From Ignavibacteria bacterium (GTDB taxonomy: Bacteria; Bacteroidota; Ignavibacteria; Tepidaquicellales; Tepidaquicellaceae), in the NCBI GenBank assembly GCA_016710985.1, contig JADJTX010000015.1, positions 63,859 through 127,858 of the forward strand: a stretch of DNA of 64,000 nt, read 5' to 3'. How positions within the stretch are numbered: position 1 is the first letter of the stretch; each line of letters begins with the position of its first letter. Of the stretch, positions 15,910 through 64,000 are shown one piece after another. The position numbers were made by a program, and so were the translations under genes. The notes below the pieces were generated by a model that worked only from the letters and a program-made list of their open reading frames with translations, did no database searches and was not told where the DNA came from.

Positions 15910-15910
15910 T

Positions 15911-27565: not shown

Positions 27566-29230
27566 TTAAATTAATGCCGTAACTTTCTGGAAGACGTGGA
27601 ATGAATTTGATATACTGACAATAAATTTATCGTCAATATTGCTTTTTAAAAACTTTAAAAAAGTTTTATTTAAATATCTTTTTTCTTCGTTTATTTTATT
27701 TACGGAATTATATGGAGCAGAATATGGTCTGTTTTCAATTTCATTATTAGTCTTATCGAGTATTTGATTCAGCTTTTCTGCAAACAGTTTAATGTGTGGT
27801 TCACTCATAATGGTGGTATGTTCAGTATCCGGGATTACATGTGATTCAAGCCCCTCCTCTGCAAGCTTTCTCCAGCCTTCTTTGTTCTCAGCTTTGTAAT
27901 TTGCACATTCAATCAGAGTTATTTTACCCGGATATTTTGAAGCAACATATCTGTCCTGCGCCTTGAAATGTATCTGTCTTATTTCATCGAATATTTTTTT
28001 CTTGGAATCACTTAGCATATATTCTGCTTTCTCCTTAATTCCCTTTTTTGTTTTAAAATAAACATATGCAGAATAATTTTTTACAACTGTCCACAGAGCT
28101 CCTGCTCTTAAATGATGTAAACTTCTTACCATAAAATGCCTGGCATCTCTCTTCGGCGGAATATATGGCTTCGGAGTTGATATAAACGGCGGCCACGTGT
28201 CAAATATAGCTAATAAAGCGACTTCGTGTCCGGCTTTTCTTAATTGCTGAGCCATTTCAAAAGCAACTCTGCCGCCAAAACATCTCCCTCCAAGTAAATA
28301 CGGTCCTTCAGCCTGTAATGATTGAATTTCTTTTACATAAAACGCAGCCATCTCTTTTAAATCAGTATGCGGCTGCTCTTTGCCATCCTGACCAAGTGGC
28401 TCTAAAACATACACCGGCTGATCAGATGGAATATATTTTATTAATTTCTGAAGTGTTAATGCCGTTTGTGCAGCAGGAGGAACATAGAAAAAAGGCAGTT
28501 TTGAACCTCCGGATTTAACCGGAACAAGTGATCTCCACGAAGGTTTCCAATCTTCATCCTTTAAAATTTTTGAGAGTCCTTTAATCGTCGGAGAATTGAA
28601 CAGAGTTGAAATTGCAAGCTTTCGTCCTGTTAGTTTTTCAATGTATCCGAATATTTGAAGAGCTAGTATTGAATGTCCCCCCAATTCAAAAAAATTATCG
28701 TTGATTCCAACTCTTTCTACACCCAGAAGTTTTTCCCAGTTTTTTGCAAGCATCCATTCTATCTCATTACCCGGAGCTTCATATCCACTTCTTTGTTCAC
28801 CTATTTCAGGCTGTGGTAATGCTTTCTTGTCAATTTTTCCGTTTGGGGTCAGCGGCAAATTCTCAAGCTCTACCCATATCGAAGGAACCATGTATTCGGG
28901 AAGTTTAACACGAAGATATTCCATCACTTCTGTTTTGTCAAAAATACCTTTAGGTACTACATACCCTATTAAAATTTTACTGCCATCTTTAACAAACGCT
29001 GTTACAACAGCATTACTTACGAGTTCACATTCCTGAAGTACACTCTCTATTTCCCCGGGCTCAATACGGTAACCTCTGATTTTTAACTGTTCATCTTTCC
29101 TTCCCTGATATTCAATGTTCCCGTTAGATAACCATCTTCCTAAGTCTCCGGTTTTATATAACCTCACAACAACATCATTTTCAACGGGATTTTTTATAAA
29201 TTTTTCTTCCGATAGATCCGGACTATTCAA
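27566..29230 (-). CDS. NRPS gene 2, last fragment: A10 C-terminal subdomain, T10 (PCP) and a thioesterase with GxCxG
   Basis: LYKTGDLGRWL..., KIRGYRIEPGEIE, PNGKIDKKALP, PCP FFELGGHSILA. TE: GPYLLGGRCFGGRVAFEMAQQL...IFDTWPP...PDTEHTTIM. It continues from the 29242-34278 ORF after a 1-nt loss at about 29,256 and a TGA at 29237-29239 in place of the Arg of GLARGYL. Confidence 0.85.
   Translation of the reverse strand: MNSPDLSEEKFIKNPVENDVVVRLYKTGDLGRWLSNGNIEYQGRKDEQLKIRGYRIEPGEIESVLQECELVSNAVVTAFVKDGSKILIGYVVPKGIFDKTEVMEYLRVKLPEYMVPSIWVELENLPLTPNGKIDKKALPQPEIGEQRSGYEAPGNEIEWMLAKNWEKLLGVERVGINDNFFELGGHSILALQIFGYIEKLTGRKLAISTLFNSPTIKGLSKILKDEDWKPSWRSLVPVKSGGSKLPFFYVPPAAQTALTLQKLIKYIPSDQPVYVLEPLGQDGKEQPHTDLKEMAAFYVKEIQSLQAEGPYLLGGRCFGGRVAFEMAQQLRKAGHEVALLAIFDTWPPFISTPKPYIPPKRDARHFMVRSLHHLRAGALWTVVKNYSAYVYFKTKKGIKEKAEYMLSDSKKKIFDEIRQIHFKAQDRYVASKYPGKITLIECANYKAENKEGWRKLAEEGLESHVIPDTEHTTIMSEPHIKLFAEKLNQILDKTNNEIENRPYSAPYNSVNKINEEKRYLNKTFLKFLKSNIDDKFIVSISNSFHVFQKVTALI
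28280..28282 (-). other. Cys codon (TGT) at the nucleophile position of the terminal thioesterase (G-R-C-F-G)
   Basis: The reverse complement of 28271-28294 reads ctt gga ggg aga tgt ttt ggc ggc, giving L G G R C F G G. This is residue 317 of the ORF. Confidence 0.85.
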
Positions 29231-29241
29231 ATAGCCTCAGG

Positions 29242-32200
29242 CTAACCCTTCTCCTCAATGCATATTTCTCCTGTTACACCAACCGGAACATTATTTTGAC
29301 ACTCATCTAAAATATACACAACTGTATTTGAAATTGGTTTTCCTATTGGAGGAGTTATGTAAGAATCTTTTTCGGATAGTTCATAGAAGCTCGTAACTAC
29401 AGTGTTCTCCGTAGGTCCGTAATTATTTACTAATTTGAATGTCTTATGCTCCATTAATAGACCTTGTAACTTGTCTCCGCCTGTAAGTAAATATCGCAAG
29501 GAATCTAATTTATCGAGTGATTCATTAATAAATTCCGGCACAATTGCCGTCGGCATAAAACTATGTGTTATTCTGTTTTGATTAATTAAGTTTAATAAAG
29601 CATCAGTTGATAAACGTGTGTCATCATCAATAATAGTTATTGAAGCACCGGCAGATAAATATGGCCAGATCTCCCAACCGAAAGCGTCAAATCCAACTCC
29701 GGCCATTGCAGTACAACGGCTTTGTGAGGTTACTTTGTAAGTTTGATTATGCCACATTATCAGATTTAATAAACCTGAATTTTCAATCATCACTCCCTTT
29801 GGTTTACCGGTTGATCCTGATGTGTAAATTACATATGCGAGCTGATCAGGCTTAATGATTTTATCAGGATTATCATAAGACATTTTGTCTATCTTTGACC
29901 AGTCTCCGCCTATTTCAATGATCTCAATTTTTTCAGATACAGGTATTTTAGATCTGAATGATTTACTGCTCAAAACAATTGCAGCATCTGTGTCCTCAAG
30001 CATGAATCTGATTCGTTCATCCGGATATTCAGGATCAACCGGTACATATGCACCGCCTGACTTTAATACTCCCAGTATCCCGATAATCATTCCTGCACTT
30101 CTGTCCATGCAAATAGGAATAAGAGTTTCATCTTTTACTCCTTTACTTATTAAATAGTGCGCCAGTTTATTTGAACGTTCATTTAGTTCTTTGTAAGTTA
30201 ATTTTTCACTTCCAAAAAATATTGCTGGGCTGTCCGGTGTTTTTTCTGCATGTTCCTCAAATAAATCAATTGGTGTTTTGTCTGTTTGGAAATCAACTTT
30301 AGTATTATTAAACTCAACCCTTAACATGTGCAGTTCTTCTTTTGTCAGCATGGACATCTCCCCGACATTTTGTTCCGGGTTCAATACGATAGACTTTAGT
30401 AACTCTTTAAAATGTTCGATCATTCTGTTTATCGTATCAGCATTAAAGAGATCAGTGCAATACTGAATATTGCCGACAAAACCCTGAGCTGTTTCATTTA
30501 TGTTTACAGTAAGATCAAACTTAGCTGATGTATGTTCGTGACCTTCCTTGGAGAGCATTACATTTCCTAATTGCAGCTTTGGAATATCAGGTGTATTCTG
30601 TAATACAAACATTACCTGAAATATAGGAGTCCTGCTTTGATCCCTGTCCTTCACTACCGCATCCACCACCTTCTCAAACGGCACATCCTGATATTCATAT
30701 GCCTTCAGTGTTGTTGCTTTAATTTTTTGAAGTAAATCTTTAAAGCCTTCGTTTCCATTTACTTCACTTCTCAATGCAAGCGTATTTATAAAGAAGCCTA
30801 TCAGCCCTTCGAGATTCTGCTGCTGCCTGCCCGCTACCGGCGTGCCGATACAGATGTCGTGCTGAGAGCTGTATCTGTAAAGCAATACGTTCAGCGCTGC
30901 AAGCAAAGTCATAAACAGTGTCGTCCCGTTTTCCTGTGATATTTTATTCAGCTTATCCGATATGTCCTTTTCAATTTTAAATCCTGCAACAGCTCCCCGT
31001 ATGCTCTGCATCGCAGGTCTGTTAAAATCTGTCGGCAGCTGCAGCGGCTCTGATCCCGCAAGGTTCTCCTTCCAGTACTCAAGCTTCTTCTCAAGTACTT
31101 CGCCCTGAAGATACTTCCTCTGCCACATCGCATAATCCGCATACTGCAATGGCAGCGGCTGAAGCTTCGGCTCTCTTCCCTCTTCAAATGCTCCGTATAA
31201 TTCAACAAGCTCCTTCACTATCACCGACGTTGACCAGCCGTCCGAAGCTATATGATGCAGCGTCACCGCAAGTACGTGATCTTCTTCACTCATCTTTATA
31301 AGTTGAGCTCTTAACATATAATCTTCCGATAAATTAAACGGCGTGCTGATCAGCTGCTTTATGTAACTCTGTAACTTGTCTTTATCTTTATCCTCACTGT
31401 ATTCTTTTCCGTCTATGGTTTCTAAACTCCATCCCTCACTGTCTTTGATAAACTGATAGCCCACGCCTTCTTCTTCACGTATCACCGTGCGGAGAACTTC
31501 GTGCCGTTCGATTATGCTTCTTAATGATCTTTCCAATGCTTCCGTGTTCAGCTTACCTGTCAATCTCAGCACCGACGGTACGTGATACTGAACGCTGCCT
31601 TCAAGATGATCTATGAACCAAAGTCTCTCCTGACTGAATGACAATGGTATCCTTTGAGGACGTTCCTTTATTACTTCAATTGCAGGCAGCACTTCCGCAT
31701 CTGACTGAACTTCAAGCTGTCCTGAAAGCAATGCTACTGTCGGATAATCAAAGATATCTCCGATCGGCATCTCTACATTAAATGCTTTTCGTATCGCTGA
31801 TATTAATCTTACTGCCAAAAGCGAGTGACCGCCAAGCTCAAAGAAATCATCGTGTATGCCTACCTGATCAACTTCTAAAACTTCTTTCCATATCTCTGCT
31901 AACTTAGTTTCTGCTTCATTACGCGGAGCCGTAAATCCTTCACTCATTATATCAAGTGTCTCAGGATCCGGTAATGCATTCCTGTCTGTCTTACCATTTG
32001 CGGTTAATGGAAACTCTGTAAGCTCTATCAACACAGAAGGTACCATGTATTCAGGAAGCTTCTCTTTTAAGAAACTTGTGATCGCTTCTTTATCAAATCC
32101 TCTTCCGGTTTCTCTTCCGGTTTCTTTGTCAATGGTTACATAGCCGACTAATCTTCTGTTGCCCTGCTTATCTTCTCTCGCAAGCACTACTGCCTGAGAT

Positions 32201-34278
32201 ACTGACTCACTCTGCTGAAGTACACTCTCTATCTCGCCAAGCTCTATCCTGTATCCTCTTATCTTTATCTGATCATCTACACGTCCAATGAAAAGTATAT
32301 TACCATCCGGTAAATATTTCACAAGATCACCTGTCCCGTACATTAACGAGTCATGTTCATCATCTTTATGAACTTTATGAACTTTACTAACTTTATGAAC
32401 TTTATGAACTTTATGAACTTTTTCAAACGGATTCTCTACAAACTTTGCTTTCGTTAATTCTTCATTGTTAAAATATCCTCTGGCGACTCCGTCTCCCGAT
32501 ATATAAAGTTCTCCCGGTACGCCTGCCGGACACAGCTGCCTGTCTTTTGTTAAAATGTAAACCTGCGTATTCGAGAACGGCTTTCCGATAGGAATCGTAT
32601 TAACAAAGTTTGTATAGTCTGTTTGTGTGTCCACTTCGTGAAGCAGTTTTCCGATAGTTGTCTCCGTCGGTCCGTAGTGATTTACTATTCTGCAATCTGT
32701 ACCCGTCTCTCTGATCTTTTCAATCAGCTCCGATTGAAGTGCTTCACCGCCGAATACCAGCAGCTTCTTTGGCAACAGTAACTTATCTTCATTCATCAAA
32801 GCTTTCCAGTGCGAAGGAACTATCTTTAAACAATCTATGCTGTGTTCTTTAAAATATCCGTGTATGTATTCTATGTTGCTTACTGATTCTTTTGTAAATA
32901 AATGCAATGCTCCGCCTGTTAACAGCGAACTGTAGATCACAGTATTCCCAAGATCGGTTGCAATGGTTGAAACCAACGCAAATGAACGGCTCTCATTTAT
33001 ACTTATCTTTTCATTTAATCCAAATACATAATCAACAAGACTTCTGTGTTCTATCATAACGCCTTTTGGCTTACCCGTCGAGCCCGATGTATAGATCACG
33101 TATGCTAAATTATCAGGTGATACTTTTGTCTGAAGGTTTTCTTTCGGTTCGCCTGTTACTTTTTCTATTTCTATTACTTCGATGTTTTCTGTAAAAGGTA
33201 ATTTTGATCTGCTCTGTTTACTGCTTACAATTATTTTAGCTTTGGTATCTTCAAGCATGTATCTGATCCTGTCCTGCGGGAAGTCCGTATCGACCGGCAC
33301 ATAAGCTGCACCCGATTTCATTATGCCAAGCATTCCGATCATCATCTCAATACCGCGTTGCGAATACAGCGGAACGGCTGTTTCTTCCTTAACTCCTTTG
33401 CTTCTCAGATAATGAGCCAGCTGATTTGAACGTTCATTTAATTCAAGATAAGAAAGTTCTTTGCCTTCGAAAACAACTGCAGCTGCGTGAGGTGTCTTTT
33501 TAACCTGATCCTCGAACAGATCAACTATGCTCTTGTCTTTCGGATAAATTACCGCTGAAGTATTTATCTCTGCTGACAACTGATGCTCTTCCTCTTTGCT
33601 CAGCATCGGCAGAAGACCTATCTTCTGATCCGGATCTTTTATGACTGATCTGAGCAGCTCTTTGAAATGCTCTGTCATGCGGCTTATCATCCGCTCCGAA
33701 TAAAGATCCGACCTGTACTGAACCGATACCATCAGGCCGTTTGGAGTTTCATTTACAAAAAATGTTATCTCAAACTTCGATACATTATTCTCAAATGCTT
33801 CCGTACTCATCCGCACCTCGCCAAGCTGCAGCTGCGGAACCTCAGGTGTATTATGCAATACCAGCATCACCTGAAACAGCGGGCTTCTGCCCGGATCTCT
33901 GTCCTTCACTACCGCATCTACCACTTTCTCAAACGGAACTTCCTGATGTGAGTATGCATCAAGTGTCGTCTGCTTTACCTGATGAAGCAACTCAATGAAT
34001 GTTTCATCATTGCTTACTTCACTTCGCAGAGCAAGTGTATTTACAAAGAATCCGATAAGGTTTTCGATCTCCTGCTGCGGACGGTTGGTAATGGAAGTTC
34101 CTACTGATATGTCACTCTGTCCGCTGTACCTGTATAGCAGCACATTAAAAGCTGAAAGCAAGGTCATGAACAATGTACTGCCCTGCTGACGGCTTAATTC
34201 ATTAAGTCCGTTTGCTGTTTCCTTTTCTACCTTAAAGCTCTGAGTTGTGCCGCTGTTTGTTTTCACGCTTGAGCGCAT
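29242..34278 (-). CDS. NRPS gene 2 fragment: C9 (C-terminal part)-A9(Asp code)-T9-C10-A10(Leu code, up to core A6)
   Basis: A cores LAYVIYTSGSTGKPKG twice, NHYGPTETT and NNYGPTENT. PCP FFELGGHSLLA. C motif LHHIASDGWS. It is in frame with ORF 34348-34629 across the TAA at 34348-34350. Confidence 0.9.
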   Translation of the reverse strand: MRSSVKTNSGTTQSFKVEKETANGLNELSRQQGSTLFMTLLSAFNVLLYRYSGQSDISVGTSITNRPQQEIENLIGFFVNTLALRSEVSNDETFIELLHQVKQTTLDAYSHQEVPFEKVVDAVVKDRDPGRSPLFQVMLVLHNTPEVPQLQLGEVRMSTEAFENNVSKFEITFFVNETPNGLMVSVQYRSDLYSERMISRMTEHFKELLRSVIKDPDQKIGLLPMLSKEEEHQLSAEINTSAVIYPKDKSIVDLFEDQVKKTPHAAAVVFEGKELSYLELNERSNQLAHYLRSKGVKEETAVPLYSQRGIEMMIGMLGIMKSGAAYVPVDTDFPQDRIRYMLEDTKAKIIVSSKQSRSKLPFTENIEVIEIEKVTGEPKENLQTKVSPDNLAYVIYTSGSTGKPKGVMIEHRSLVDYVFGLNEKISINESRSFALVSTIATDLGNTVIYSSLLTGGALHLFTKESVSNIEYIHGYFKEHSIDCLKIVPSHWKALMNEDKLLLPKKLLVFGGEALQSELIEKIRETGTDCRIVNHYGPTETTIGKLLHEVDTQTDYTNFVNTIPIGKPFSNTQVYILTKDRQLCPAGVPGELYISGDGVARGYFNNEELTKAKFVENPFEKVHKVHKVHKVSKVHKVHKDDEHDSLMYGTGDLVKYLPDGNILFIGRVDDQIKIRGYRIELGEIESVLQQSESVSQAVVLAREDKQGNRRLVGYVTIDKETGRETGRGFDKEAITSFLKEKLPEYMVPSVLIELTEFPLTANGKTDRNALPDPETLDIMSEGFTAPRNEAETKLAEIWKEVLEVDQVGIHDDFFELGGHSLLAVRLISAIRKAFNVEMPIGDIFDYPTVALLSGQLEVQSDAEVLPAIEVIKERPQRIPLSFSQERLWFIDHLEGSVQYHVPSVLRLTGKLNTEALERSLRSIIERHEVLRTVIREEEGVGYQFIKDSEGWSLETIDGKEYSEDKDKDKLQSYIKQLISTPFNLSEDYMLRAQLIKMSEEDHVLAVTLHHIASDGWSTSVIVKELVELYGAFEEGREPKLQPLPLQYADYAMWQRKYLQGEVLEKKLEYWKENLAGSEPLQLPTDFNRPAMQSIRGAVAGFKIEKDISDKLNKISQENGTTLFMTLLAALNVLLYRYSSQHDICIGTPVAGRQQQNLEGLIGFFINTLALRSEVNGNEGFKDLLQKIKATTLKAYEYQDVPFEKVVDAVVKDRDQSRTPIFQVMFVLQNTPDIPKLQLGNVMLSKEGHEHTSAKFDLTVNINETAQGFVGNIQYCTDLFNADTINRMIEHFKELLKSIVLNPEQNVGEMSMLTKEELHMLRVEFNNTKVDFQTDKTPIDLFEEHAEKTPDSPAIFFGSEKLTYKELNERSNKLAHYLISKGVKDETLIPICMDRSAGMIIGILGVLKSGGAYVPVDPEYPDERIRFMLEDTDAAIVLSSKSFRSKIPVSEKIEIIEIGGDWSKIDKMSYDNPDKIIKPDQLAYVIYTSGSTGKPKGVMIENSGLLNLIMWHNQTYKVTSQSRCTAMAGVGFDAFGWEIWPYLSAGASITIIDDDTRLSTDALLNLINQNRITHSFMPTAIVPEFINESLDKLDSLRYLLTGGDKLQGLLMEHKTFKLVNNYGPTENTVVTSFYELSEKDSYITPPIGKPISNTVVYILDECQNNVPVGVTGEICIEEKG
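32368..32421 (-). repeat. In-frame 9-bp tandem repeat x6 in A9, encoding (KVH)3-KVS-(KVH)2
   Basis: The + strand reads atgaacttt x2, actaacttt, atgaacttt x3. Protein: FEKVHKVHKVHKVSKVHKVHKDDEHD, lying between A-core GDGVARGYF and YGTGDL. Confidence 0.9.
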
Positions 34279-34347
34279 GAGATCAGAAGGAAGATGTAAA
34301 ACTGAAACTCCGTCCAGTTTCTTTTTCCAGTAGTCAAGCTTTTTATC

Positions 34348-34629
34348 TTATACCTCTCCCTGCAGATAATTCCTCTGCCATATCGCAAAATCCGCATACT
34401 GAAGTTTCAATGACTCTAAAGTTAAAGGATTACCTTCTTCATAAGATCTGTAAAGCTCCGTCACATCCTTTACTATGATCGGCATTGACCACGCATCCGA
34501 AGCAATATGGTGCATTGTTACTACAAGTATGCTCTCATCTTCCTGAAGATTGATCAGCTCTGCACGAAGCATATAATCTTTTGACAAGTCGAAAGGTATG
34601 TTGATAAGCTGCTGTATGTAATCCTTCAA
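34348..34629 (-). CDS. NRPS gene 2 fragment: central part of C9 (HHxxxD motif region)
   Basis: VVTMHHIASDAWSMPIIVKDVTELY...LQYADFAIWQRNYLQGEV. Near-identical paralogue text occurs in C6 (ORF 44548-48645). It is bounded by a 1-nt frameshift at about 34,628 and the TAA at 34348-34350. Confidence 0.85.
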   Translation of the reverse strand: MKDYIQQLINIPFDLSKDYMLRAELINLQEDESILVVTMHHIASDAWSMPIIVKDVTELYRSYEEGNPLTLESLKLQYADFAIWQRNYLQGEV

Positions 34630-49414: not shown

Positions 49415-49738
49415 TTAGATAATTAATTTTTCGTATTCAGCTGAATCTTTTTCCTCGTTGTAAATATTTATATTTATTTCTATGTATTTGCTAAGGTCGC
49501 TAATATTCGTAAATTTAAATAAATCTTTAATGGCTAATTCTATCTCCAGTTCTTTGAGTATGGCTGAGATCACTCTCATCGCAAGAAGCGAGTTGCCGCC
49601 AAGTTCAAAGAAATTATCGTAAACTCCAACCTTCTCTAAATTTAGAAGCTCTTTCCATATACCGGCTAATTTTTCTTCAAGCTCATTTCTTGGCGCAACA
49701 TATTCATTAGCTCTTGTCAGCTGAACTTCCAATTTCAT
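49415..49738 (-). CDS. NRPS gene 1, last fragment: T4 (PCP) plus short C-terminal docking tail, genuine stop
   Basis: YVAPRNELEEKLAGIWKELL...FFELGGNSLLAMRVISAI... then ...NIYNEEKDSAEYEKLII*. It joins ORF 49735-52653 through a frameshift in the coding-strand A6 run at 49742-49747. Confidence 0.85.
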   Translation of the reverse strand: MKLEVQLTRANEYVAPRNELEEKLAGIWKELLNLEKVGVYDNFFELGGNSLLAMRVISAILKELEIELAIKDLFKFTNISDLSKYIEININIYNEEKDSAEYEKLII

Positions 49739-54755: not shown

Positions 54756-57700
54756 CTTGCTAAACCTTCGCCTGCAATATAGATTTCACCGGGAATTCCA
54801 ACAGGCATTGGTTCACAGAAATCATTAAGAATGTATAACCGGACATTATCGATTGGCTTACCAATGGGAATGTCATTTTTAAAATCCTCTCCGGATTCTT
54901 TTGCATTAAATTCAAATACGCTGCACCCGACTGTCGCCTCAGTCGGTCCGTACTCATTTACTATGTTTACATCAATTCCTTCTTCAGTCAGATAATTGAA
55001 TTGACTGCGCAGCAACGCCTCACCGCCAACTACAATTTTCTTTGCTATGACATTTCCATTATCTTTACTGAACTTTGTCCGGAGCAACTCAAAATGAGCC
55101 GGAGTGATCTTTATGAAATCATACGGAGCGTATTTCATAAAATTTTTATCTTCAAATACGTCTAAAGATTCCTCTGAACTAATAACTATTGATTTACCAT
55201 TGATCAGCGGCATTAACATACCTGTAAGTGAAGCGTCAAATGTATAAGACAAATGTAAGAAGCTTCCGGAATTAGATTTTTCATTGCTCACATATCCGGT
55301 CTTTTTATTTAACATATAGCTTGTTAAATTTTTGTGCTCTATCATTACTCCTTTTGGTTGTCCTGTAGAACCTGATGTATAAATTACATATGCAAGCTGA
55401 CCGGGTTTGATGTCCGATTTCAAATTTTTTGAAGACTGCTTGTTTATGTCTGATAAAGCTCCGTCAATCTCTATGATGTCGATGTCAGTATTTTCTGAAG
55501 CTGATAATTTTTCACGGACTCCTTTACTGCTTAACACTATTGCTGCACCTGTGTCTTTTAGAATGTATGCAATGCGCTTTTCCGGATAATCGGGATCCAC
55601 AGGAACGTATGCTCCGCCGGCTTTCATAATACCGATTATTCCAATTACCATTTCAACTCCGCGTTCAATGCAGATCGGGACCAATGAATCTTCCCCAATT
55701 CCTTTGCTTTGCAGATAATGAGCTAATTGATTTGAGCGCTTGTTCAGTTCTTTAAAGGTCATCTTCTGATCCTTAAAGATCAAAGCATTTACGTCAGGAT
55801 TTATTTTGACCGACTCTTCAAACAGATCAACGAACGATCTGATCTTCGGATAACCTGCTTTAGTATTATTAAACTCCGCTAATACTTTGCTTATCTCTGA
55901 TTCCGAAAGCATCTTCAACGAATCTATTCTTTGCTGTGGCTTGCTGACAATTGATTCAAGGAGATTTTTAAAATGAATGATCATGCGTTCAACTGTATCC
56001 TGTCTGAACAGATCACTGCAGTATTCAACCGCTCCCTTTATACCGTCAGAAGTTTCAGTCATGCTGAAAGTCAGATCAAACTTTGATACACTGTGAACTG
56101 TCACCTCACGTGATAGTTTTAGTTTACCCAAAACCAGCTCCTCTGCCTCAGGTACATTCTGAAGTATGAACATCACCTGAAATAAAGGACTTCTGCTAAG
56201 AGATCTGTCCTTAACAACAGCGTCAACTACTTTTTCAAAAGGAACATCCTGATGAGCAAATGCCTGCAGAGTATCTTCCCTTAACAGCTTTAAAAATTCA
56301 TCAAAATAAATTGAATCTTTTACTTCACTTCGCAATGCAATCGTATTAATAAAGAACCCGATCATATCCTCGGTCTCCTGCAGCTGTCTTCCAGCAACTG
56401 GTGTCCCTACGCATACATCGTTCTGACTGCTGTAACGGTAAAGTAAAACTTTGAATGCTGCAAGCAATGTCATGAACAGAGTCGTTCCGGAATTTTTACT
56501 CAGCTCATGAATTCTTTCAGACAATTCCTTTTCCAGTCGGAAATTTAAAATTTCTCCTTTAGTACTTTGAACAGCAGGACGTGCAAAGTCAGACGGTAAA
56601 TCCAATGGTGACACTCCTTCAAGTTTCTCTTTCCAGTAGCTGAGCTTGTTCTCCAGAACTACACCCTGCAAATACTTTCGCTGCCATATTGCATAATCGG
56701 AATATTGTATCTTCAGCGGTGAAAGATTTGCTTCACGGCTTTCTTCGAAAGAATTATACAGCTCAACCAGTTCTTTTACAAGAATGGATACAGACCATCC
56801 GTCAGATGCAATATGGTGAAGTGTTACAACAAGAATATGCTCATCTTCTTTTAACCTGATCAGCGCTGCTCTCAGCATGTGATCCTTTGATAAATCGAAA
56901 GGCGTATAAATTAATTTCTGTATGTATTGATTTAATTCTTTATTGTCTTCTTCAAAAATAAAATCATCCTGAATTTCTAAATACCATTCATCTTTTTCTT
57001 TGATCTTTTGGAAAACAATACCATCCGTTTCTTCAAATACTGTTCTCAGTACTTCGTGACGATTGACTATAGTTTGTACCGACTGTATCAATGCATCCTT
57101 GTTCAATTTCCCTATTAATCGTAAAACTGCAGGTATGTGATATTGAGTGCTTCCTCCGAGATGATCAATAAACCATAACCTCTCCTGACTGAATGATAAA
57201 GGTATGAATTCAGGTTTGGATTGCTGAACTTCAATGGAAGGTAACAACTCTGTTTCGGGTTCATTGTCAATGCGCTTCGCTAAGAGTTCGATCGTCGGAT
57301 AATCAAAAACATCATTAATAGGGATTTCCACACCAAGCTCATTTCGTATTGCTGAGATTAAACTTATTGCAAGCAAAGAGTGACCGCCTATGTCAAAAAA
57401 ATCATCGGTAACTCCGACTTCATCTGTCTCGAGCACATTTTTCCATACTTCAGCTAACTTTGCTTCAGTCTCATTCCGCGGCTCAGTATATCCGGCGCTC
57501 ACAGAATCAGTTATCTCAGGATCCGGTAATGCCTTTTTGTCAATCTTCCCGTTTGAAGTTAAAGGTATGCTTTTTAGCTCTGACCATAATGAAGGGATCA
57601 TATATTTCGGCAGACGCTGAGCAAGATATGATATCATTGCTTCCTTTTCAAAATCATTTTTCGGAACAATGTAAGCTGTCAGTCTTCGGCTTCCTGATTT

Positions 57701-60700
57701 ATCTTCCTTTGCAATTACTACTGCATTATTAACAAGCTCACATTGCTGCAAAACACTTTCGATCTCACCTAACTCTACCCTGTAACCTCTTATCTTTACC
57801 TGATCATCAGCTCTTCCGGCATATTCAATTGTTCCGTCAGGCAGCCATCTGCACAGATCTCCTGTTCTGTACATCCTTTCTCCTTTTTCACTGAAAGGAT
57901 TCTTCGAAAACTTTTCAGCTGTCAGCTCAGGACGGTTCAGATATCCTCTTGATAAACCTTTTCCGGAAATACAAAGCTCTCCTGCAATTCCAACAGGCTG
58001 TAATTCATCTCTCTCATTTAGTATGTATAACTCAACATTGTCAATTGGCTTACCTATAGGAATTTCGTTGTTCATTATTTCCGTGTCTCTCAGTGTATTA
58101 AACCAATAAGTGCTGCATCCTACAGTAGCTTCTGTCGGACCATACTCGTTTATTATTTCGGCATCAATTCCTTTCTCAATTAAAATACTTAGCTGACTCT
58201 TTAATAAAGCCTCACCACCGATCACTAACTTCTTTGTTAATAATTTCCCGTCTGCAGTTTTCATTTTTGACTGAAGCAGCTCTAAGTGAGAGGGAGTTAT
58301 TTTTATGAAATCATACGGGGCATATTTATGAAGATTGGTATCTTCGAATGCGTTGACTGACTGCTTTGAACTAATGACAACTGACTTACCGTGAATTAAC
58401 GGCATGAAAATTCCTGTTACAGAAGCATCAAATGTATAGGACAAATGTAAAAAGCTCCCCGCACTGTTCACGTCGTCAGTAACATATTTTGTTACGCTGT
58501 TGACAAGGTAATTATACAGATTCCCGTGTTCTATCATTACGCCTTTAGGTCTTCCGGTTGAACCTGAAGTATATATCACATATGCAAGATCATTTTCCTT
58601 TACATCAATTCTTAAATTGCCTGCCGGCAGATCATCAAACTGTGATGCGGGTTCATCAATTACTAGAATGTTGTTTCCCTTAAACTTTACTCTGTTCGCT
58701 TTATTAGTTACAATCAACCCAGTATCGGTATCTTCAAGCATCTGCTTTATTCTTGCCTCAGGATAATCCGGATCAATCGGCACGTAAGCTCCGCCCGCTT
58801 TAAGTATACCAAGTATACCATTAATCATTTCAACCGAATACTCAATGCAGATGAAAACAGGACTGTCAGCTTTCACACCTTTGCTGCTAAGATAATGTGC
58901 TAATCTGTTTGAACGTTCGTTCAATTCTTTATAGGTGACCTTTCTGTCTTTAAAAATAACCGCAGTGTCATTAGGGGTTTTCTTTACCTGCTCTTCAAAT
59001 AAATTTACAACACTTCTGAATTCCGCTTTATCAGCTGTGATTTTATTAAACTCATGTAAAAGCTGATGCTCTTCTTCATTTGTCAGGAGCTTAACATCTC
59101 CCAGCGACTCTTTTTCGTTTTGTATAAACTGAAGTAATATATTCTCAAAGTGTTTCTGTATTTCTTTCAGATACTCATCCTTTAACAATCCTGAATTATA
59201 TGAAAACCTGACACTGAGCTTCTCTGAACTTATTACTGTAAGACTTAACGGATAATTGTTCTGTTCATTAATTACAAAATTCTCCGCTTTGAGATTCTGA
59301 TCAGCGGATTTAAACTTATTCATTGGGAAATTCTGAAAAGTAACTGTGCTGTCAAAAAGATCACCCTGCATACCTGTCCATTTTTGTATATCCATCATTG
59401 ATGTATACTGATACTGCCGGGCTGAGGCTTCCTGATACTGTATTTCCTGCAACCAGTCAATTACTCTTTTACTTTCATCTATTGTCGCGTGCGAAGGTAT
59501 AGTATTGATGTATATTCCTACCCTCTTCTCGACTCCGTGCAGATCCTCAGGTCGACCCGAGACTGTCACGCCGTATATAATGTCTTTGCTTCCTGTATAT
59601 TTATGCAGCAGGTAAAACCATACTCCCTGGATCAAAGTATTGAGAGTAATTCTGTGCTCTTGTGCATAACTGTTTATTCGCTGTGCTGTATCAGTTTCAA
59701 ATTTTAATATATCAAGTTTACATGGTCCCAGACCTTTTGTCCTGTCTGAAGTAGTTCCTATAAAAGGCAGTAATGTATTGTTCTCAATTCCGTTAAGATA
59801 ATTTCGCCAGAAATTCTCTTCCTTCTCTTTATCCTGACGTTCAATGTATCTGATGTAATCTTCATATCTGTCGTTCTCAGCTGCATCAATTTCTTTACCT
59901 GATGAAAGTAACTCATAAGTGTTCAGAAATTCTTTGATCAGTGTCTGAATTGACCATCCGTCTATCAGTATATGATGGTATGTCATTAACATCCTGTACC
60001 GGTTTTCGCTCAGCCTTAATAATCCCATACGGAAGAGCGGTGCTGAATTGAAATCAAAGCCCTTCATTCTGTCAGTCTCTGTGTATTCCTTTAGTAATTT
60101 TTCCTGCTCATCTTTTTCATAATTCCTGTAGTCTGATTCTTCAGATGGAATTTCAACATTCCTGTAAACACACTGAACAGGTACACGGAATATGTCATAA
60201 TAAAAAGCGCTTCGCAGTATGCTGTGGTTACTTATTCCAATGTTCCAGCTTTTTTTCAGCATCTCAATGTCAGGTTCTATCAGACCACATTGAAACTGAT
60301 TTATATATGATCCGGCTTTACCGTCATAAAGACTGTGAAATAACATCCCCTGCTGTATCCCGCTTAAACGGTATATTCCCTCTACGGACTCACTCCTGGC
60401 TTTACCTCTGTATGGCTCATTCAAAAATTTATCCAGCTCTGAATAATTTATTTCAGAACCAAGTCCATAATCTGATGGCGTGTAAACTATTCCGGTTTTT
60501 TGCTGCTCAGTACAATGAGAAATCAGTGACTCTAAAGCTGACTGATACTTTTTAATCAGATTTGAAATTGTTTCCTTTTCATAATGAAGACTGCTGTAAC
60601 TCCAGTTCAATCTCAGCTCTCCGCCCTGCACAAAACCGTTAACCGATAGCTGATTACTTACTGTACGCATGTCCCCGGAATTTGGACCCCCTGACTCTCC

Positions 60701-61798
60701 GGCTGCCGATAACCATTTACCGCTGCTGACAACATTATCAAGCTGTCCTAAATAATTAAATACAATATCCCAGCAGTCTTTTCCTTTGAGCTTTTCATTT
60801 TTATTAATATACTTTAATACTCCGTATCCAAGTCCTTTATCCGGCACACGTCGCAATTGTTCCTTCGTAGATTTAATTTTATCAGACAAATTACTTCCGC
60901 TTTTTATTTCAAGCAGAACAGGGTAAACGCTTGTAAACCAGCCAACCGTCCGGCTTGTATCTGTGTCATCTGAAATATTTTCACGACCGTGTCCTTCCAT
61001 CCCGATTAACACCTTCTCTGTATTTCCCCATTCACATAGAGTCAATGCCAGTGCGCAAAGAAGCATGTCATTTATTTCAGTATGATAAACCCTTGGAACT
61101 TGCTGTAATAAAAATTGCGTCTGAACAGGATCAAGACGCAGAGTCTGAGTTTCAATATCCTTTCCTCTTAATACACCGGTATATTTTTTATCAGCACGTA
61201 AAGGTTCATAACTGACTGCTGCTTCCTCCCAGTATTTTACCTGCGACAATAAGCGTTTGCTCTTACCGTATTGCTCCAGTGCTTCATACCACTGACGGTA
61301 TGAACTGCTCTTAGCACCAAGCTCCGCTTTTCCTTCCTTCTGAATTTCACTCAGTAATAACTCCAGATCTTCAAGTAATATTCTCCAGGATACTCCGTCT
61401 ACAGCAAGATGATGAATCACAATTAATAAACGGTTGTGCGTCTGATTTTCCGGAGTTTGAATCAGTACAAACTTTGACAGCTCTCCTTTTTCAATATCAA
61501 GACTGCGTTGGAATTTTCCCGCATGCTCTCTGACTTCATCAGCAAAAGAGTCTTCCTTTACTGAGCTTAGATCAAGAGTTATTAATGTTCCTTCGTTTCC
61601 CCCGTATGCCTGTCTCCACTCACCGTCTTTATTTGTATAAATGAACCGCAATGCATCATGATGAGAAGTTAACTGTTCTACAGACTTCTTCAATATTTCC
61701 GGAGACACAGATTTTTCAATACATAATAATACACTTTGGTTAAAATGAGAAATATCTGAATCTGTCTCTTCGAAATACCATTGCTGTATAGGCAGCAA
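52721..61798 (-). CDS. NRPS gene 1 fragment: E1-C2-A2(Asn)-T2-C3-A3(Asn)-T3-E3
   Basis: 3025-aa ORF. E motifs HHLAVDGVSWRIL occur twice. C motifs are YHHILIDGWS and LHHIASDGWS. Both A domains carry INEYGPTEATVG or VNEYGPTEATVG. PCPs are GGHSLLA and GGDSIITIQ. It ends at a +1 insertion at about 52,729. Confidence 0.9.
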   Translation of the reverse strand: MLPIQQWYFEETDSDISHFNQSVLLCIEKSVSPEILKKSVEQLTSHHDALRFIYTNKDGEWRQAYGGNEGTLITLDLSSVKEDSFADEVREHAGKFQRSLDIEKGELSKFVLIQTPENQTHNRLLIVIHHLAVDGVSWRILLEDLELLLSEIQKEGKAELGAKSSSYRQWYEALEQYGKSKRLLSQVKYWEEAAVSYEPLRADKKYTGVLRGKDIETQTLRLDPVQTQFLLQQVPRVYHTEINDMLLCALALTLCEWGNTEKVLIGMEGHGRENISDDTDTSRTVGWFTSVYPVLLEIKSGSNLSDKIKSTKEQLRRVPDKGLGYGVLKYINKNEKLKGKDCWDIVFNYLGQLDNVVSSGKWLSAAGESGGPNSGDMRTVSNQLSVNGFVQGGELRLNWSYSSLHYEKETISNLIKKYQSALESLISHCTEQQKTGIVYTPSDYGLGSEINYSELDKFLNEPYRGKARSESVEGIYRLSGIQQGMLFHSLYDGKAGSYINQFQCGLIEPDIEMLKKSWNIGISNHSILRSAFYYDIFRVPVQCVYRNVEIPSEESDYRNYEKDEQEKLLKEYTETDRMKGFDFNSAPLFRMGLLRLSENRYRMLMTYHHILIDGWSIQTLIKEFLNTYELLSSGKEIDAAENDRYEDYIRYIERQDKEKEENFWRNYLNGIENNTLLPFIGTTSDRTKGLGPCKLDILKFETDTAQRINSYAQEHRITLNTLIQGVWFYLLHKYTGSKDIIYGVTVSGRPEDLHGVEKRVGIYINTIPSHATIDESKRVIDWLQEIQYQEASARQYQYTSMMDIQKWTGMQGDLFDSTVTFQNFPMNKFKSADQNLKAENFVINEQNNYPLSLTVISSEKLSVRFSYNSGLLKDEYLKEIQKHFENILLQFIQNEKESLGDVKLLTNEEEHQLLHEFNKITADKAEFRSVVNLFEEQVKKTPNDTAVIFKDRKVTYKELNERSNRLAHYLSSKGVKADSPVFICIEYSVEMINGILGILKAGGAYVPIDPDYPEARIKQMLEDTDTGLIVTNKANRVKFKGNNILVIDEPASQFDDLPAGNLRIDVKENDLAYVIYTSGSTGRPKGVMIEHGNLYNYLVNSVTKYVTDDVNSAGSFLHLSYTFDASVTGIFMPLIHGKSVVISSKQSVNAFEDTNLHKYAPYDFIKITPSHLELLQSKMKTADGKLLTKKLVIGGEALLKSQLSILIEKGIDAEIINEYGPTEATVGCSTYWFNTLRDTEIMNNEIPIGKPIDNVELYILNERDELQPVGIAGELCISGKGLSRGYLNRPELTAEKFSKNPFSEKGERMYRTGDLCRWLPDGTIEYAGRADDQVKIRGYRVELGEIESVLQQCELVNNAVVIAKEDKSGSRRLTAYIVPKNDFEKEAMISYLAQRLPKYMIPSLWSELKSIPLTSNGKIDKKALPDPEITDSVSAGYTEPRNETEAKLAEVWKNVLETDEVGVTDDFFDIGGHSLLAISLISAIRNELGVEIPINDVFDYPTIELLAKRIDNEPETELLPSIEVQQSKPEFIPLSFSQERLWFIDHLGGSTQYHIPAVLRLIGKLNKDALIQSVQTIVNRHEVLRTVFEETDGIVFQKIKEKDEWYLEIQDDFIFEEDNKELNQYIQKLIYTPFDLSKDHMLRAALIRLKEDEHILVVTLHHIASDGWSVSILVKELVELYNSFEESREANLSPLKIQYSDYAIWQRKYLQGVVLENKLSYWKEKLEGVSPLDLPSDFARPAVQSTKGEILNFRLEKELSERIHELSKNSGTTLFMTLLAAFKVLLYRYSSQNDVCVGTPVAGRQLQETEDMIGFFINTIALRSEVKDSIYFDEFLKLLREDTLQAFAHQDVPFEKVVDAVVKDRSLSRSPLFQVMFILQNVPEAEELVLGKLKLSREVTVHSVSKFDLTFSMTETSDGIKGAVEYCSDLFRQDTVERMIIHFKNLLESIVSKPQQRIDSLKMLSESEISKVLAEFNNTKAGYPKIRSFVDLFEESVKINPDVNALIFKDQKMTFKELNKRSNQLAHYLQSKGIGEDSLVPICIERGVEMVIGIIGIMKAGGAYVPVDPDYPEKRIAYILKDTGAAIVLSSKGVREKLSASENTDIDIIEIDGALSDINKQSSKNLKSDIKPGQLAYVIYTSGSTGQPKGVMIEHKNLTSYMLNKKTGYVSNEKSNSGSFLHLSYTFDASLTGMLMPLINGKSIVISSEESLDVFEDKNFMKYAPYDFIKITPAHFELLRTKFSKDNGNVIAKKIVVGGEALLRSQFNYLTEEGIDVNIVNEYGPTEATVGCSVFEFNAKESGEDFKNDIPIGKPIDNVRLYILNDFCEPMPVGIPGEIYIAGEGLARGYLNRTDLTEEKFVKDPFSKEEGARLYRTGDRGRWLADGNIEYLGRIDDQVKIRGYRIELGEIENTLQESGLVRQSVVLARQTSGESKRLVGYVVPDGAFNKEAILNYLNIRLPDYMIPSLWVEMESLPLTQNGKIDKRALPDPDASELISNEYAAPRNETELVLAGIWKELLRVERVGINDNFFELGGDSIITIQVLSRARRMGYELKPKDIFIHQTISGLSAVLAERTASELTAEQGSLTGRSGLLPIQQWYLDGADTDAVSVQDISHFNQSVLLSIDKTVTPEMLGIAVEMLSAHHDALRFIYHKTDGDWIQEYGTEKGVLNLLDLKSAQASSLAEKIKEHAEKYQSSLNIEKGEIAKFVLIETPESETKNRILIIVHHLAVDGVSWRIILDDLELLLNGFTKNEKAELGLKSSSYRQWYEALAEYGKSRRLLSQINYWEETADSYEALKVDKEFTGAVRAKDLESQVMRLDSERTKELLQEVPRAYHTEINDMLLCALAQTICEWGVKDKIVIGLEGHGRESISESSENIDTSRTVGWFTNLYPVLIEPEINKTLSDSIKAVKEQLRRIPDKGLGYGVLKYINKDEKLRDKGNWDVVFNYLGQLDNVVSSGKLFSAAGESKGEDISGEHIVKEKLMINGFVQGGKLTLRWNYSSRHFEKETIAKLTETYKKET

Positions 61799-63006
61799 TC
61801 CGCTCTCCCCGATAGTATGCCTTGCTCACCGGTTACCGCAGATGATGAATGCTCTGCAAGGACCGAAGACAAACCTGCAATTGTCTGATGAATGAAAATA
61901 TCTTTCGGCTTTAACTCATACCCCATTCGACGCGCACGGCTCATTACCTGTATAGTGATTATCGAATCACCTCCAAGCTCAAAGAAGTTGTCATGAATAC
62001 CTACACGCTCTGCACGAAGAAGGTCTTTCCATATCTCAGCAAGTACTCTTTCTGTTTCATTCCTCGGAGCGGTATATTCATTTAATAACAGCCCTGTTAC
62101 TTCCGGATCGGGTAATGCTTTCCTGTCTATCTTTCCGTTTTGTGTTAATGGTAAACTTTCGAGCTCTACCCATATTACAGGTATCATATAATCCGGAAGT
62201 CTCTTGCTCAGATAAGACATTACTGCATCTTTGTCAAAAACACCTTCCGGAACTACATATCCTGTCAGCCTTTTACTGACTTCATTAGTATCATGAGCAA
62301 GAACTACCGCCTGTCTTATTAACTCACATTCCTGAAGCACACTCTCTATCTCTCCAAGCTCAATTCTGTATCCTCTGATCTTTACCTGCTCATCCATTCT
62401 TCCTAGATATTCAATGTTTCCGTCGTGAAGCCGACGTCCTGAATCTCCTGTCCTGTATAATCTTGCACCTTCTTCACTGCTGAAAGGATCTTGGATAAAT
62501 TTCTCCTGCGTTAATTCCGGAAGATTCAAATATCCTCTGGCTAACCCCGCTCCTCCAATACATATTTCTCCGGCTATGCCCGCCGGCTTAAGTGTTTCAT
62601 TTTTTCCCAATATCCGGACAACGGTATTTGATATTGGCTTTCCGATTGGAGGTATTGTATACTTATCTTTTTCTGAAAGCTCATAAAAGGTTGTAACTAC
62701 TGTATTCTCGGTTGGTCCGTAATTATTTACTAATTTATATGGCTCTCCTTCAATATTAACACCGGGCAGCTTATCTCCTCCGGTGAGTAAGTACTGCAGC
62801 GATTTAATTTTTTGTCTCGACGCATTTATGAACTCAGGTACAAGAGCTGTTGGCATGAAACAATGCGTGATCTCATTTGAATTGAATAAATTAAGCAAAG
62901 CCTCAGGGGATATGCGCGTGTCATCATCAATTATATTTAATGAAGCGCCGGCACAAAGATAAGGGAAGATCTCCCATCCGAATGCATCGAAGCCTACTCC
63001 TGACAT
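61690..63006 (-). CDS. NRPS gene 1 fragment: A1 (Leu code, remainder)-T1; true coding part about 61,808-63,068, the last about 35 codons are out of frame
   Basis: GVGFDAFGWEI, NNYGPTENTVV, GEICIGGAGLARGYLN, YRTGD, NGKIDRKALP, PCP FFELGGDSIITIQ. A G5-to-G4 loss at 61,807-61,810 breaks ...GESGLLPIQQWYFEE..., which continues in ORF 52721-61798. Confidence 0.85.
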   Translation of the reverse strand: MSGVGFDAFGWEIFPYLCAGASLNIIDDDTRISPEALLNLFNSNEITHCFMPTALVPEFINASRQKIKSLQYLLTGGDKLPGVNIEGEPYKLVNNYGPTENTVVTTFYELSEKDKYTIPPIGKPISNTVVRILGKNETLKPAGIAGEICIGGAGLARGYLNLPELTQEKFIQDPFSSEEGARLYRTGDSGRRLHDGNIEYLGRMDEQVKIRGYRIELGEIESVLQECELIRQAVVLAHDTNEVSKRLTGYVVPEGVFDKDAVMSYLSKRLPDYMIPVIWVELESLPLTQNGKIDRKALPDPEVTGLLLNEYTAPRNETERVLAEIWKDLLRAERVGIHDNFFELGGDSIITIQVMSRARRMGYELKPKDIFIHQTIAGLSSVLAEHSSSAVTGEQGILSGRADCCLYSNGISKRQIQIFLILTKVYYYVLKNLCLRKY

Positions 63007-63068
63007 TGTAGTTGAACGGCTGGTACCGGTTACTTTGTAAACCCGGTTATGCCATGTAATTAAATTAA

Positions 63069-64000
63069 CTACCCGGAATGTTCTATCATCACACCTTTCG
63101 GCTTGCCTGTTGAACCGGATGTATATATCACGTAAGCAAGATTATCCGGTCTGACTGACCGAAGATTGTCTTTCGGTTGTTTGCTTATTTCTGAAAAGTC
63201 CTTATCTGTTTTTATAATGTTAAGCTCATCTGTAGTCGGCAGCTTTGAACTTATATCATCACTGCTGATCAGTATCTTCGCGCCTGTATTCTCTGTCATA
63301 AACAGAATCCGCTCTTCAGGATAATCCGGATCAATGGGAACATAAGCTCCGCCTGCTTTCAGGATTCCGAATATTGCTATTATCAGATCAATACTTCGTT
63401 CCATGCAAGCAGGTACAAGTGTTTCTTCTTTTACACCTTTGCTCTGTAAATAATTTGCCAGTTGATTTGAACGCTCATTAAGTTCTCTGTATGTTAACTT
63501 CTGATCTTCAGATATTAACGCTATGCCATCCGGTGTTTTTGCTGCCTGCTCTTCAAACAGATCTGTAATACTCCCGTCTTTTGGATATTCAGCAGTTGCA
63601 ATATTGAATTCTGATAAAAGACGCTGTTCCTCATCATCAGTTATCAGCTTAATTTCACTAAGTAAGTTTTTTTCATTCCCGACTATTTGCCTGAAAACAT
63701 TTTCGAAGTGATTCCGGATTGATAATATTTGCTCCTCTTCAAGTAACTCTTTGTTATAGCTGAATCCTATTGTTATCTTATCTGAAATCCCTATGATGAC
63801 TGTCAGCGGATAATTCGACTGCTCACGCATTTGCAGGTTCTCAACACGCAGGCTCCATTTCTTTGACTTTACAATTTCACTTACAGGATAATTCTCAAAC
63901 ACAAGTATAGTATCAAACATATCTCCTTTGATCCCGGTCCATCCCTGAATTTTTTGTAAAGGTGTATATTGAAACTGCCGGGAATGAACCTGATTCTTCT
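63069..64000 (-). CDS. NRPS gene 1 fragment: C-domain C-terminal part plus N-terminal half of A1; upstream end outside the window
   Basis: The frame is open from the listed M (63920) to nt 64000 (...RQFQYTPLQKIQGWTGIKGD-MFDTILVFENYP...). Motifs LTYRELNERSNQLA and LAYVIYTSGSTGKPKG. The TAG at 63069-63071 results from a 1-nt loss. The shifted frame reads LVNLITWHNRVYKVTGTSRSTTMSGVGFDAF. Confidence 0.85.
   Translation of the reverse strand, partial: KNQVHSRQFQYTPLQKIQGWTGIKGDMFDTILVFENYPVSEIVKSKKWSLRVENLQMREQSNYPLTVIIGISDKITIGFSYNKELLEEEQILSIRNHFENVFRQIVGNEKNLLSEIKLITDDEEQRLLSEFNIATAEYPKDGSITDLFEEQAAKTPDGIALISEDQKLTYRELNERSNQLANYLQSKGVKEETLVPACMERSIDLIIAIFGILKAGGAYVPIDPDYPEERILFMTENTGAKILISSDDISSKLPTTDELNIIKTDKDFSEISKQPKDNLRSVRPDNLAYVIYTSGSTGKPKGVMIEHSG

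Follow-up and report, generated by a model that had tools for sequence, protein, structure and literature searches.

Non-ribosomal peptide synthetases (NRPSs) of the surfactin, tyrocidine and bacitracin type, as found in Bacillus and Brevibacillus, are built from repeated condensation (C), adenylation (A) and thiolation or carrier (T) domains, in which a carrier followed by an epimerization (E) domain is succeeded by a C domain of the D-donor (DCL) class, and they end in a type I thioesterase (TE). The same grammar is found in the locus described here, an NRPS region at positions 27,566-64,000 on the minus strand of a 64,000-nt stretch from the metagenome-assembled genome (MAG) of an Ignavibacteria bacterium, the whole of which is referred to as the window. 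The Leu and Asp codes of surfactin synthetase are identical to those of the window, and GrsA, TycA, TycB, TycC, BacC and SrfA-C are among the best PDB matches of its E domains and of its C domains of the DCL and L-donor (LCL) classes. On the other hand, identity to these systems is only ~35-45%, the order of residues is another one, their thioesterases carry a Ser nucleophile where the window carries a Cys, and their hosts belong to the Bacillota and not to the FCB (Fibrobacterota, Chlorobiota and Bacteroidota) superphylum.

Within the FCB superphylum, the nearest characterized example is the chitinopeptin NRPS of Chitinophaga eiseniae and C. flava (Bacteroidota; PMC9248904), which resembles the window in being a long synthetase from this superphylum. 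Chitinopeptins have been described as lipodepsipeptides of 14-15 residues whose synthetase opens with a C-starter domain, and Asn goes unmentioned in the main text of that work (PMC9248904). When the window's first C-A region was compared with cultured organisms, Chitinophaga NRPS loci ranked among the best matches at 46-48% identity, which corresponds to ordinary NRPS background; one of these loci is from C. eiseniae and may or may not be the chitinopeptin cluster itself. Given this level of identity over the C-A query and the different composition, membership of the chitinopeptin family was rejected and the two are regarded as different clusters.

The region in the window very probably belongs to a type I NRPS cluster of conventional, collinear design, of which it forms the 3' part, in the chromosome of an uncultured Ignavibacteria bacterium; the numerous breaks of its reading frame are an artefact of assembly and do not reflect pseudogenization. 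The synthetase is canonical throughout and involves no new principle.

Organization of the synthetase genes

Pfam searches of the minus-strand pieces between 27,569 and 63,998 retrieved ten pairs of AMP-binding (PF00501) and AMP-binding_C (PF13193) domains, ten PP-binding domains, 13 domains of the Condensation family (one of them cut by the window edge) and a single Thioesterase domain, with E-values down to 0. Such an array cannot be a chance pattern, and it contains the ten A domains, ten T domains and terminal TE that an initial annotation of the stretch had listed. The region combines A domains with recognizable codes, carriers with a GGxS motif, condensation domains with an HHxxxD motif and a collinear C-A-T series ending in a release domain, as is typical of type I modular NRPSs.

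As assembled, the region is made up of 11 stop-to-stop pieces spread over three frames of the minus strand. When each piece was searched with tblastn against the window DNA, paralogous modules aligned through every break with contiguous query coordinates, only single bases being missing. Repair of eight single-base indels and two in-frame stops gave a 4,861-aa frame running from the window edge and a second frame of 7,271 aa, and correction of a ninth indel (27,679-27,684) brought the second gene to ~7,237 aa, with its true stop, a TAA, at 27,666-27,668. Gene 1 (49,415-64,000, minus strand; 4,861 aa after repair), which is truncated at its 5' end by the window edge, ends in a TAA at 49,415-49,417. 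Gene 2 (27,666-49,381, minus strand; ~7,237 aa after repair) opens with an ATG at 49,379-49,381, a 33-nt spacer separating the two, and in the assembled sequence its ORF extends to 27,566 by way of the ninth indel. The split into two genes proposed in the initial annotation is borne out by this stop, spacer and start, together with a TubC_N-type docking domain at the N terminus of gene 2 (49,211-49,381, minus strand; 24.6 bits in Pfam) and a gene boundary at the matching point of L014, a related Ignavibacteriaceae locus without frame breaks. The stitching of ORFs by which that split had been obtained works as well, but it takes nine indel repairs and two stop repairs, the lesions belonging to assembly errors that run through the whole window.

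The domain order was established with phmmer, using seeds cut from the window's own domains. Gene 1 reads C0 (partial, DCL-like)-A1(Leu)-T-E / C2(DCL)-A2(Asn)-T / C3(LCL)-A3(Asn)-T-E / C4(DCL)-A4(Phe)-T, and gene 2 reads dock-C5-A5(Val)-T / C6-A6(Asp)-T / C7-A7(Asn)-T-E7 / C8(DCL)-A8(Asn)-T / C9-A9(Asp)-T / C10-A10(Leu)-T-TE, an order that reproduces exactly, on the repaired genes, the one claimed beforehand. The ten carriers conform to it: GGDSI precedes every E domain, and of the seven other T domains six carry GGHSL or GGHSI, T4 carrying GGNSL.

The 12 complete domains of the Condensation family fall into three groups, with at most 23% identity between groups and at least 52% within them. 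The first comprises E1 (60,446-61,809), E3 (52,639-54,028) and E7 (38,154-39,536), all on the minus strand like the other domains, which follow a GGDSI-bearing T domain and share the N-terminal signature LLPIQQW. The second group consists of C2 (59,036-60,415; LSGIQQGMLFH, with HHILIDGWS as its core motif), C4 (51,229-52,605) and C8 (36,744-38,120), which always stand after an E domain, carry the signature LSG(I/L)QQGMLFH and are 52-63% identical to one another. The remaining six complete C domains, among them C3 (55,892-57,211), have no E domain upstream and carry LSFSQERLWF. In the PDB, E1 is best matched by the E domains of PvdL, BacC, GrsA and TycA, C2 by McyB, the post-E C domain of BacC, TycB1 and SrfA-C (224-312 bits; the LCL domain TycC6 scored only 85 bits) and C3 by Txo1, Txo2 and TycC6. 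The matches of C2 are taken here to be of the D-donor class and those of C3 of the L-donor class. Grouping and PDB matches together uphold the earlier claim that the class of each C domain, DCL or LCL, goes with the presence or absence of a preceding E domain.

The HHxxxD motif is present in all nine complete C domains, C6 and C9 reading HHIASDAWS with Ala in place of Gly. At the window edge, C0 is represented by the C-terminal 133 aa of a DCL-like condensation domain (63,600-63,998), which phmmer scored at 114 bits with the DCL seed and at 7 bits with the LCL seed. Since C0 is DCL-like, the unseen module before it would probably end in an E domain.

Predicted peptide and its release

To read substrate specificity, the ten A domains were aligned with GrsA PheA in MAFFT and the residues at code positions 235, 236, 239, 278, 299, 301, 322, 330, 331 and 517 were extracted; the reference was checked and is identical to PDB 1AMU over residues 1-556, except for residue 2. 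All ten decamers given in the initial annotation were recovered in this way. The Leu code DAWFLGNVVK is carried by A1 (62,131-63,557) and A10 (28,835-30,261), the latter shared without change by its orthologue in L002, the syntenic Logan contig SRR31850362_145446. The Asn code DATKVGEVGK is found in A2 (57,545-58,999), A3 (54,350-55,822), A7 (39,858-41,324) and A8 (35,238-36,701), and the Asp code DLTKVGHIGK in A6 (43,053-44,598) and A9 (31,990-33,516), which are 96% identical to each other. A4 (49,756-51,186) carries the Phe code DAWTIAAVCK and A5 (46,321-47,763) the Val code DAFWLGGTFK.

The predicted substrates were assigned because the same code strings have published uses: the Leu and Asp codes in surfactin synthetase, the Asn code in the zeamine NRPS, the Val code in MlcM, and the Phe and Leu codes in AerB, for which Phe has been chemically confirmed. 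In the literature these codes were matched in their 8-letter forms, the full 10-letter strings giving no match. Alignment of A10 to PDB structures, tried as a structural check of the Leu code, was set aside as uninformative, the top match being LgrA.

The chain predicted from these codes and from the position of the E domains is ...-D-Leu-Asn-D-Asn-Phe-Val-Asp-(D)Asn-Asn-Asp-Leu, with four Asn and two Asp. The order of the backbone proposed earlier is reproduced, but its D-Asn at residue 7 hinges on a single codon. Whereas E1 and E3 have the expected HHLAVDG motif as well as a preceding GGDSI carrier, E7 reads HYLAVDG (TAC at 39,123-39,125), although it is 96% identical to E3. This HY is treated as a probable sequence error because the error rate of the assembly is high and because C8, which follows, is of the DCL class; D-Asn at residue 7 would depend on that base being wrong. 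Another way to read the same motif is as that of a recently inactivated epimerase.

By analogy with established NRPS enzymology, from which we infer ordered assembly, epimerization, transfer to the TE and export, each A domain would pick and adenylate one amino acid and load it onto its own carrier domain, thiolation and condensation following in order. In modules 1, 3 and, probably, 7 the E domain would invert the residue and the next C domain would take the D-configured donor, while contact between the two proteins would be made through a short C-terminal tail of gene 1 and the TubC_N-like docking domain of gene 2. The finished chain would then move to the cysteine of the C-terminal TE, with hydrolytic or macrocyclizing release, and the adjacent MsbA-like ABC half-transporter presumably exports the product, whatever activity that product may have.

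The terminal type I TE (27,737-28,501, minus strand; PF00975) has a Cys at the position of the nucleophile, within GRCFGG (codon TGT at 28,280-28,282). In an alignment with PDB 7CRN, this Cys falls opposite the Ser of GWSLG, and the Ser of the GxSxG motif is absent. The Cys is not a sequencing error, because L002 and the homologues P0002-P0013 share it, and so do 45 of the top 120 homologues, which come from several phyla. By sequence, the Asp 27 residues after the Cys is canonically placed, and it hardly varies within the family; DTEH contains a His that is a candidate for the catalytic one. The AlphaFold2 model of the domain has a pLDDT (predicted local distance difference test) score of 91, and its top Foldseek matches are all type I thioesterases (7CRN/7DXO, Pks13, EntF, NocB and Vlm2).

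In this regard, two characterized Cys thioesterases provide the closest comparison. ObiF1 (obafluorin) and SulM (sulfazecin) are, like the window TE, type I thioesterases whose nucleophile elbow reads GxCxG and not GxSxG. They differ from it in that their catalytic Asp has been relocated to a loop after a later strand, whereas the Asp of the window TE is at the canonical +27, and in that they close four-membered rings by means of a beta-OH or beta-N nucleophile, whereas the last residue predicted here is Leu, without a beta-nucleophile. A beta-lactone- or beta-lactam-forming TE of the ObiF1/SulM type was rejected on these grounds, by sequence for the Asp and by the A10 code for the Leu. Our searches found no characterized Cys-nucleophile TE with a canonical Asp, and enzymes with this combination seemingly form a common metagenomic sub-family.

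Among the alternatives to the collinear prediction, the one that survives best is that the synthetase is intact and its product nevertheless departs from that prediction, through an inactive E7 (leaving L-Asn at residue 7), through tailoring encoded outside the window or through an unusual mode of release by the Cys TE. The HY of E7, the Cys nucleophile itself, the unusual ring closures performed by ObiF1 and SulM and the fact that the upstream part of the cluster is unseen all speak for it. Against it stand the DCL class of C8, which is expected if E7 is functional, the canonical +27 Asp and the predicted terminal Leu without a beta-nucleophile, and neither ObiF1 nor SulM was found among the PDB sequence matches of the TE at E <= 0.01. 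Taken together, such a departure seems unlikely, though by a good distance the least so of the alternatives considered here.

The most far-reaching reading would be that the locus encodes the first non-ribosomal peptide known from the Ignavibacteriota, rich in Asn and Asp, at least 11 residues long and alternating between D and L configuration, released by a widespread but uncharacterized kind of TE with Cys and canonical Asp that perhaps carries out a reaction which Ser thioesterases do poorly. As a whole, this conjunction is improbable and is offered here as a speculative proposal.

Module number, block duplication and the origin of the frame breaks

Ten modules lie in the window, in agreement with the 'at least 10' of the initial annotation, which turns out to be an underestimate. 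P0198 (MBK8551808), an A-domain fragment from the same contig, is located two accession numbers upstream of the window-edge ORF, beyond nt 64,000, and its specificity pattern, DVWHLSLID by eye against the GrsA motifs, is that of Ser. With this Ser-code module upstream, the assembly line has at least 11 modules.

Two long direct repeats are found within the NRPS region: 29,792-35,756 matches 40,855-46,842 over 6 kb at 86% nucleotide identity, and 36,442-43,352 matches 50,927-57,808 over 7 kb at 75%. They point to block duplication of modules, and such large internal duplications would account for the paralogue pairs A6/A9 (96% identity), C6/C9 (94%) and E3/E7 (96%).

The same repeats raise the alternative that module count and order are partly an artefact, near-identical modules having been collapsed, duplicated or mis-joined, so that the true synthetase differs from ten modules. 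The near-identity of these domain pairs, the length of the repeats and the demonstrably error-prone nature of the assembly favour it. However, repeats of 75-86% nucleotide identity are easily separated by an assembler, the domain grammar is flawless over all joins, with a DCL-class C domain after each E and GGDSI on each pre-E carrier, and the gene boundary with its docking domain agrees with the frame-intact L014. We therefore regard a misassembled module series as very unlikely.

The breaks themselves were mapped by reading the three frames at each junction and comparing them with paralogues. In total, two in-frame stops and nine indels of one base each were located in the NRPS region, nearly all of the indels within short homopolymers; all are given here on the minus strand. 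In gene 1, single nucleotides are deleted from a G run at 63,072-63,074, from GGGG at 61,807-61,810 and from AAAAAA at 49,742-49,747, and one is inserted in AAAAA at 52,731-52,735. In gene 2, there are insertions of one nucleotide in a G run at 48,605-48,607 and at CCC at 44,572-44,574, and a deletion of one from a T run at 34,628-34,630, where a 95%-identical paralogue reads ...DDAQLLKDYIQQ. An in-frame TAA inside C9 (34,348-34,350) stands where the paralogues have Leu. A10 contains two lesions within 29,237-29,257: one G is missing near 29,256, and the codon at 29,237-29,239 is an in-frame TGA, for which L002 has AGA (Arg). At 27,679-27,684, finally, a run of six A stands against seven in the L002 orthologue and adds a false tail of 34 aa to gene 2, up to 27,566, whereas the true gene ends in ...EEKKIFK at the stop of 27,666-27,668. 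In the deposit these fragments are annotated as separate proteins: the 554-aa ORF at 27,566-29,230 is identical to MBK8551796, an 'AMP-binding protein [Ignavibacteria bacterium]' on a contig of 134,369 bp, and other ORFs of the window correspond to MBK8551770, -776, -787, -791, -804 and -805.

The lesions are by no means confined to the synthetase. In the flank, the genes for a TonB-dependent receptor, a PorV-like protein, an NHL protein, a 599-aa protein, a 1,102-aa peptidase, single-stranded DNA-binding protein (SSB) and the ABC exporter are frameshifted in the window and intact in L002, at 84-98% protein identity. The receptor, PorV-like, 358-aa, 599-aa, peptidase and exporter genes are each spread over two or three frames, and SSB has a terminal frameshift; their intact counterparts in L002 encode a 936-aa TonB-dependent receptor, a 345-aa PorV-like protein, proteins of 358 and 599 aa, a 1,102-aa peptidase, a 576-aa ABC exporter and the NRPS end. 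Some 8-9 frameshifts and one stop fall in 16.5 kb of flank (10,977-27,543), compared with nine indels and two stops in 36.4 kb of NRPS. Relative to L002, most frameshifting gaps in the flank consist of one nucleotide missing from the window, frequently within a single-base run, and most other frameshifting gaps of the alignment form compensating pairs. Upstream genes for pantothenate kinase and a PMT_2 protein also seem shorter or split in comparison with the gene calls of L003 and L004, judging by ORF lengths only. Over the flank as a whole (1-27,543), almost every gene longer than ~900 bp is split by 1-nt indels, at about one frame-breaking error per 2 kb, whereas L002, at ~88-91% identity, has these genes intact; examples are found at 10,977-13,786, 13,788-14,824, 14,833-15,906, 15,911-17,706, 20,463-23,757 and 25,814-27,543.

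The breaks are attributed to assembly errors because no viable cell carries such a load and because the flank is at least as broken and yet intact in L002; the 11-piece pattern is best read as the artefact of an error-prone, probably long-read, assembly. To judge by the style of its accessions and locus tags (IPL53_...), the MAG may belong to the Nanopore MAGs from activated sludge described by Singleton et al. For that set, assembly was done with CANU, followed by polishing with Racon, medaka and a single Illumina round of Racon (Singleton et al.). An alternative genetic code was considered for the in-frame stops of the window and rejected, as there are only three of them, each a different codon, and the other breaks are plain frameshifts.

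A decaying pseudogene, in which the frameshifts, the nonsense codons and the His-to-Tyr change of E7 would be real and no peptide would be made, might be suggested by the nine indels and two premature stops found within 36 kb, by the altered catalytic His, by an exporter that is broken as well and by three lesions that are substitutions and not indels, but it is scarcely credible when the lesion density of the flank is at least as high, when the genes hit there include those for SSB, the TonB-dependent receptor and the PorV-like protein, whose products remain 84-98% identical to intact orthologues, when a free-living cell could not bear such a load, when no break has lost sequence and the other core motifs checked are intact, and when the indels are single-base events, mostly in single-base runs, with a bias to deletion in the flank.

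Several points nevertheless weigh against an intact, conventional synthetase in the form given here. The His-to-Tyr change of E7 and the three in-frame stops (TAA, TGA and TAG) are substitutions and not homopolymer indels, and fit the error model less well. L002 is only ~81-91% identical to the window at the DNA level and shows the intact form of the genes, not the true sequence of the window strain. Modules 6 and 9 are 94-96% identical and the 6-kb repeat stands at 86%, so that the number of modules rests on a correct assembly. The docking match of 24.6 bits is slightly below the Pfam cutoff of 26, and no phosphopantetheinyl transferase or MbtH-like gene had a Pfam match in the window. Finally, specificity codes predict and do not prove substrates. 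With these points taken into account, a conventional cluster seen through a faulty assembly is still the reading we hold with high, if not complete, confidence.

Genomic neighbourhood, relatives and significance

Next to the end of gene 2, a fused ABC exporter with transmembrane and nucleotide-binding domains is encoded at 25,814-27,543 on the minus strand; ABC_membrane and ABC_tran are found on two fragments, and the L002 orthologue is one protein of 576 aa. Two lesions interrupt it, an in-frame TAG at 26,884-26,886 (Tyr in L002) and a frameshift near 25,961, and its closest NCBIfam models are of MsbA/HlyB type, all below threshold. The terminal TE and fused exporter of the initial annotation are both present, but the exporter lies just outside the interval of 27,566-64,000 to which that annotation referred and is itself interrupted. 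A scan for promoters and terminators around the exporter was uninformative.

Further on, rpsF (S6), ssb and rplI (L9) are adjacent at 23,846-25,574, without rpsR (S18) between them and in the same order as in L002, and a tRNA-Leu(GAG) lies at 25,491-25,574. With tRNA-Leu, rpsF, ssb and rplI as downstream neighbours, the boundary of the cluster is placed on that side. The window also carries Por_Secre_tail and PorV-like proteins, which together with its origin from an Ignavibacteria MAG confirms that the genome is of the FCB type with a type IX secretion system (T9SS), as had been proposed. These features map to 7,092-9,386, 10,977-14,824 and 17,735-20,080 and include two proteins with T9SS C-terminal sorting domains, one of them also with PLD-like domains, as well as a CarboxypepD_reg-Plug-TonB receptor adjoining a PorV/FadL-like outer-membrane protein. 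A functional link between the NRPS and the T9SS cargo genes was considered and found to be unsupported, rpsF, ssb, rplI and tRNA-Leu separating them, and the adjacency is regarded as incidental, without evident functional meaning.

The closest relative of the locus is L002, which shares with the window the series TonB receptor, PorV-like protein, ..., L9, SSB, S6, ABC exporter and NRPS end. Its terminal A10-T-TE is uninterrupted, has 83% identity to that of the window and agrees with it in both the Leu code and the Cys of the TE. It differs from the window in coming from another strain or species (81-91% nucleotide identity) and in having uninterrupted genes. Of its NRPS, ~2.3 kb (751 aa) falls in the locus examined, the called gene running for ~1,000 aa to the end of the contig. 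L006 and L014, both from the related Ignavibacteriaceae MAG, were rejected as orthologues, being ~50% identical with other codes that include Gly, Pro and Ser, and L001 was rejected on the same grounds. The homologue search gave no orthologue of the window-edge C-A piece above 56% identity. L002 aside, the nearest proteins among 5.8 billion are metagenomic fragments, which reach 54-59% identity at the TE end and 52-56% in the first C-A region. The nearest loci from cultured organisms are NRPSs of Chitinophaga, Aquimarina, Flavivirga, Paenibacillus and Bacillus at 35-48%, and the relatives found in a scan of genome contigs are at 34-55%. Full-text literature searches found no characterized non-ribosomal peptide from the Ignavibacteria. 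A product without known counterpart is, on this evidence, which does not include MIBiG or antiSMASH, unrefuted rather than proven.

The state of the assembly also has consequences for genome mining. With about one indel or false stop per 2-3.5 kb in this MAG, a synthetase of two genes has been deposited as at least nine 'proteins', and mining of such assemblies miscounts genes, and possibly modules, unless the frames are repaired first, protein counts based on annotation being inflated. A survey of biosynthetic gene clusters in long-read activated-sludge MAGs has reported that multimodular NRPS and polyketide synthase clusters contain a median of only two modules (PMC9765116). If the window MAG is part of that data set, frame-breaking errors might contribute to such low module counts. 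In conclusion, a near-complete assembly line with ten textbook codes, from a phylum without known peptide products, constitutes a usable lead for natural-product discovery.

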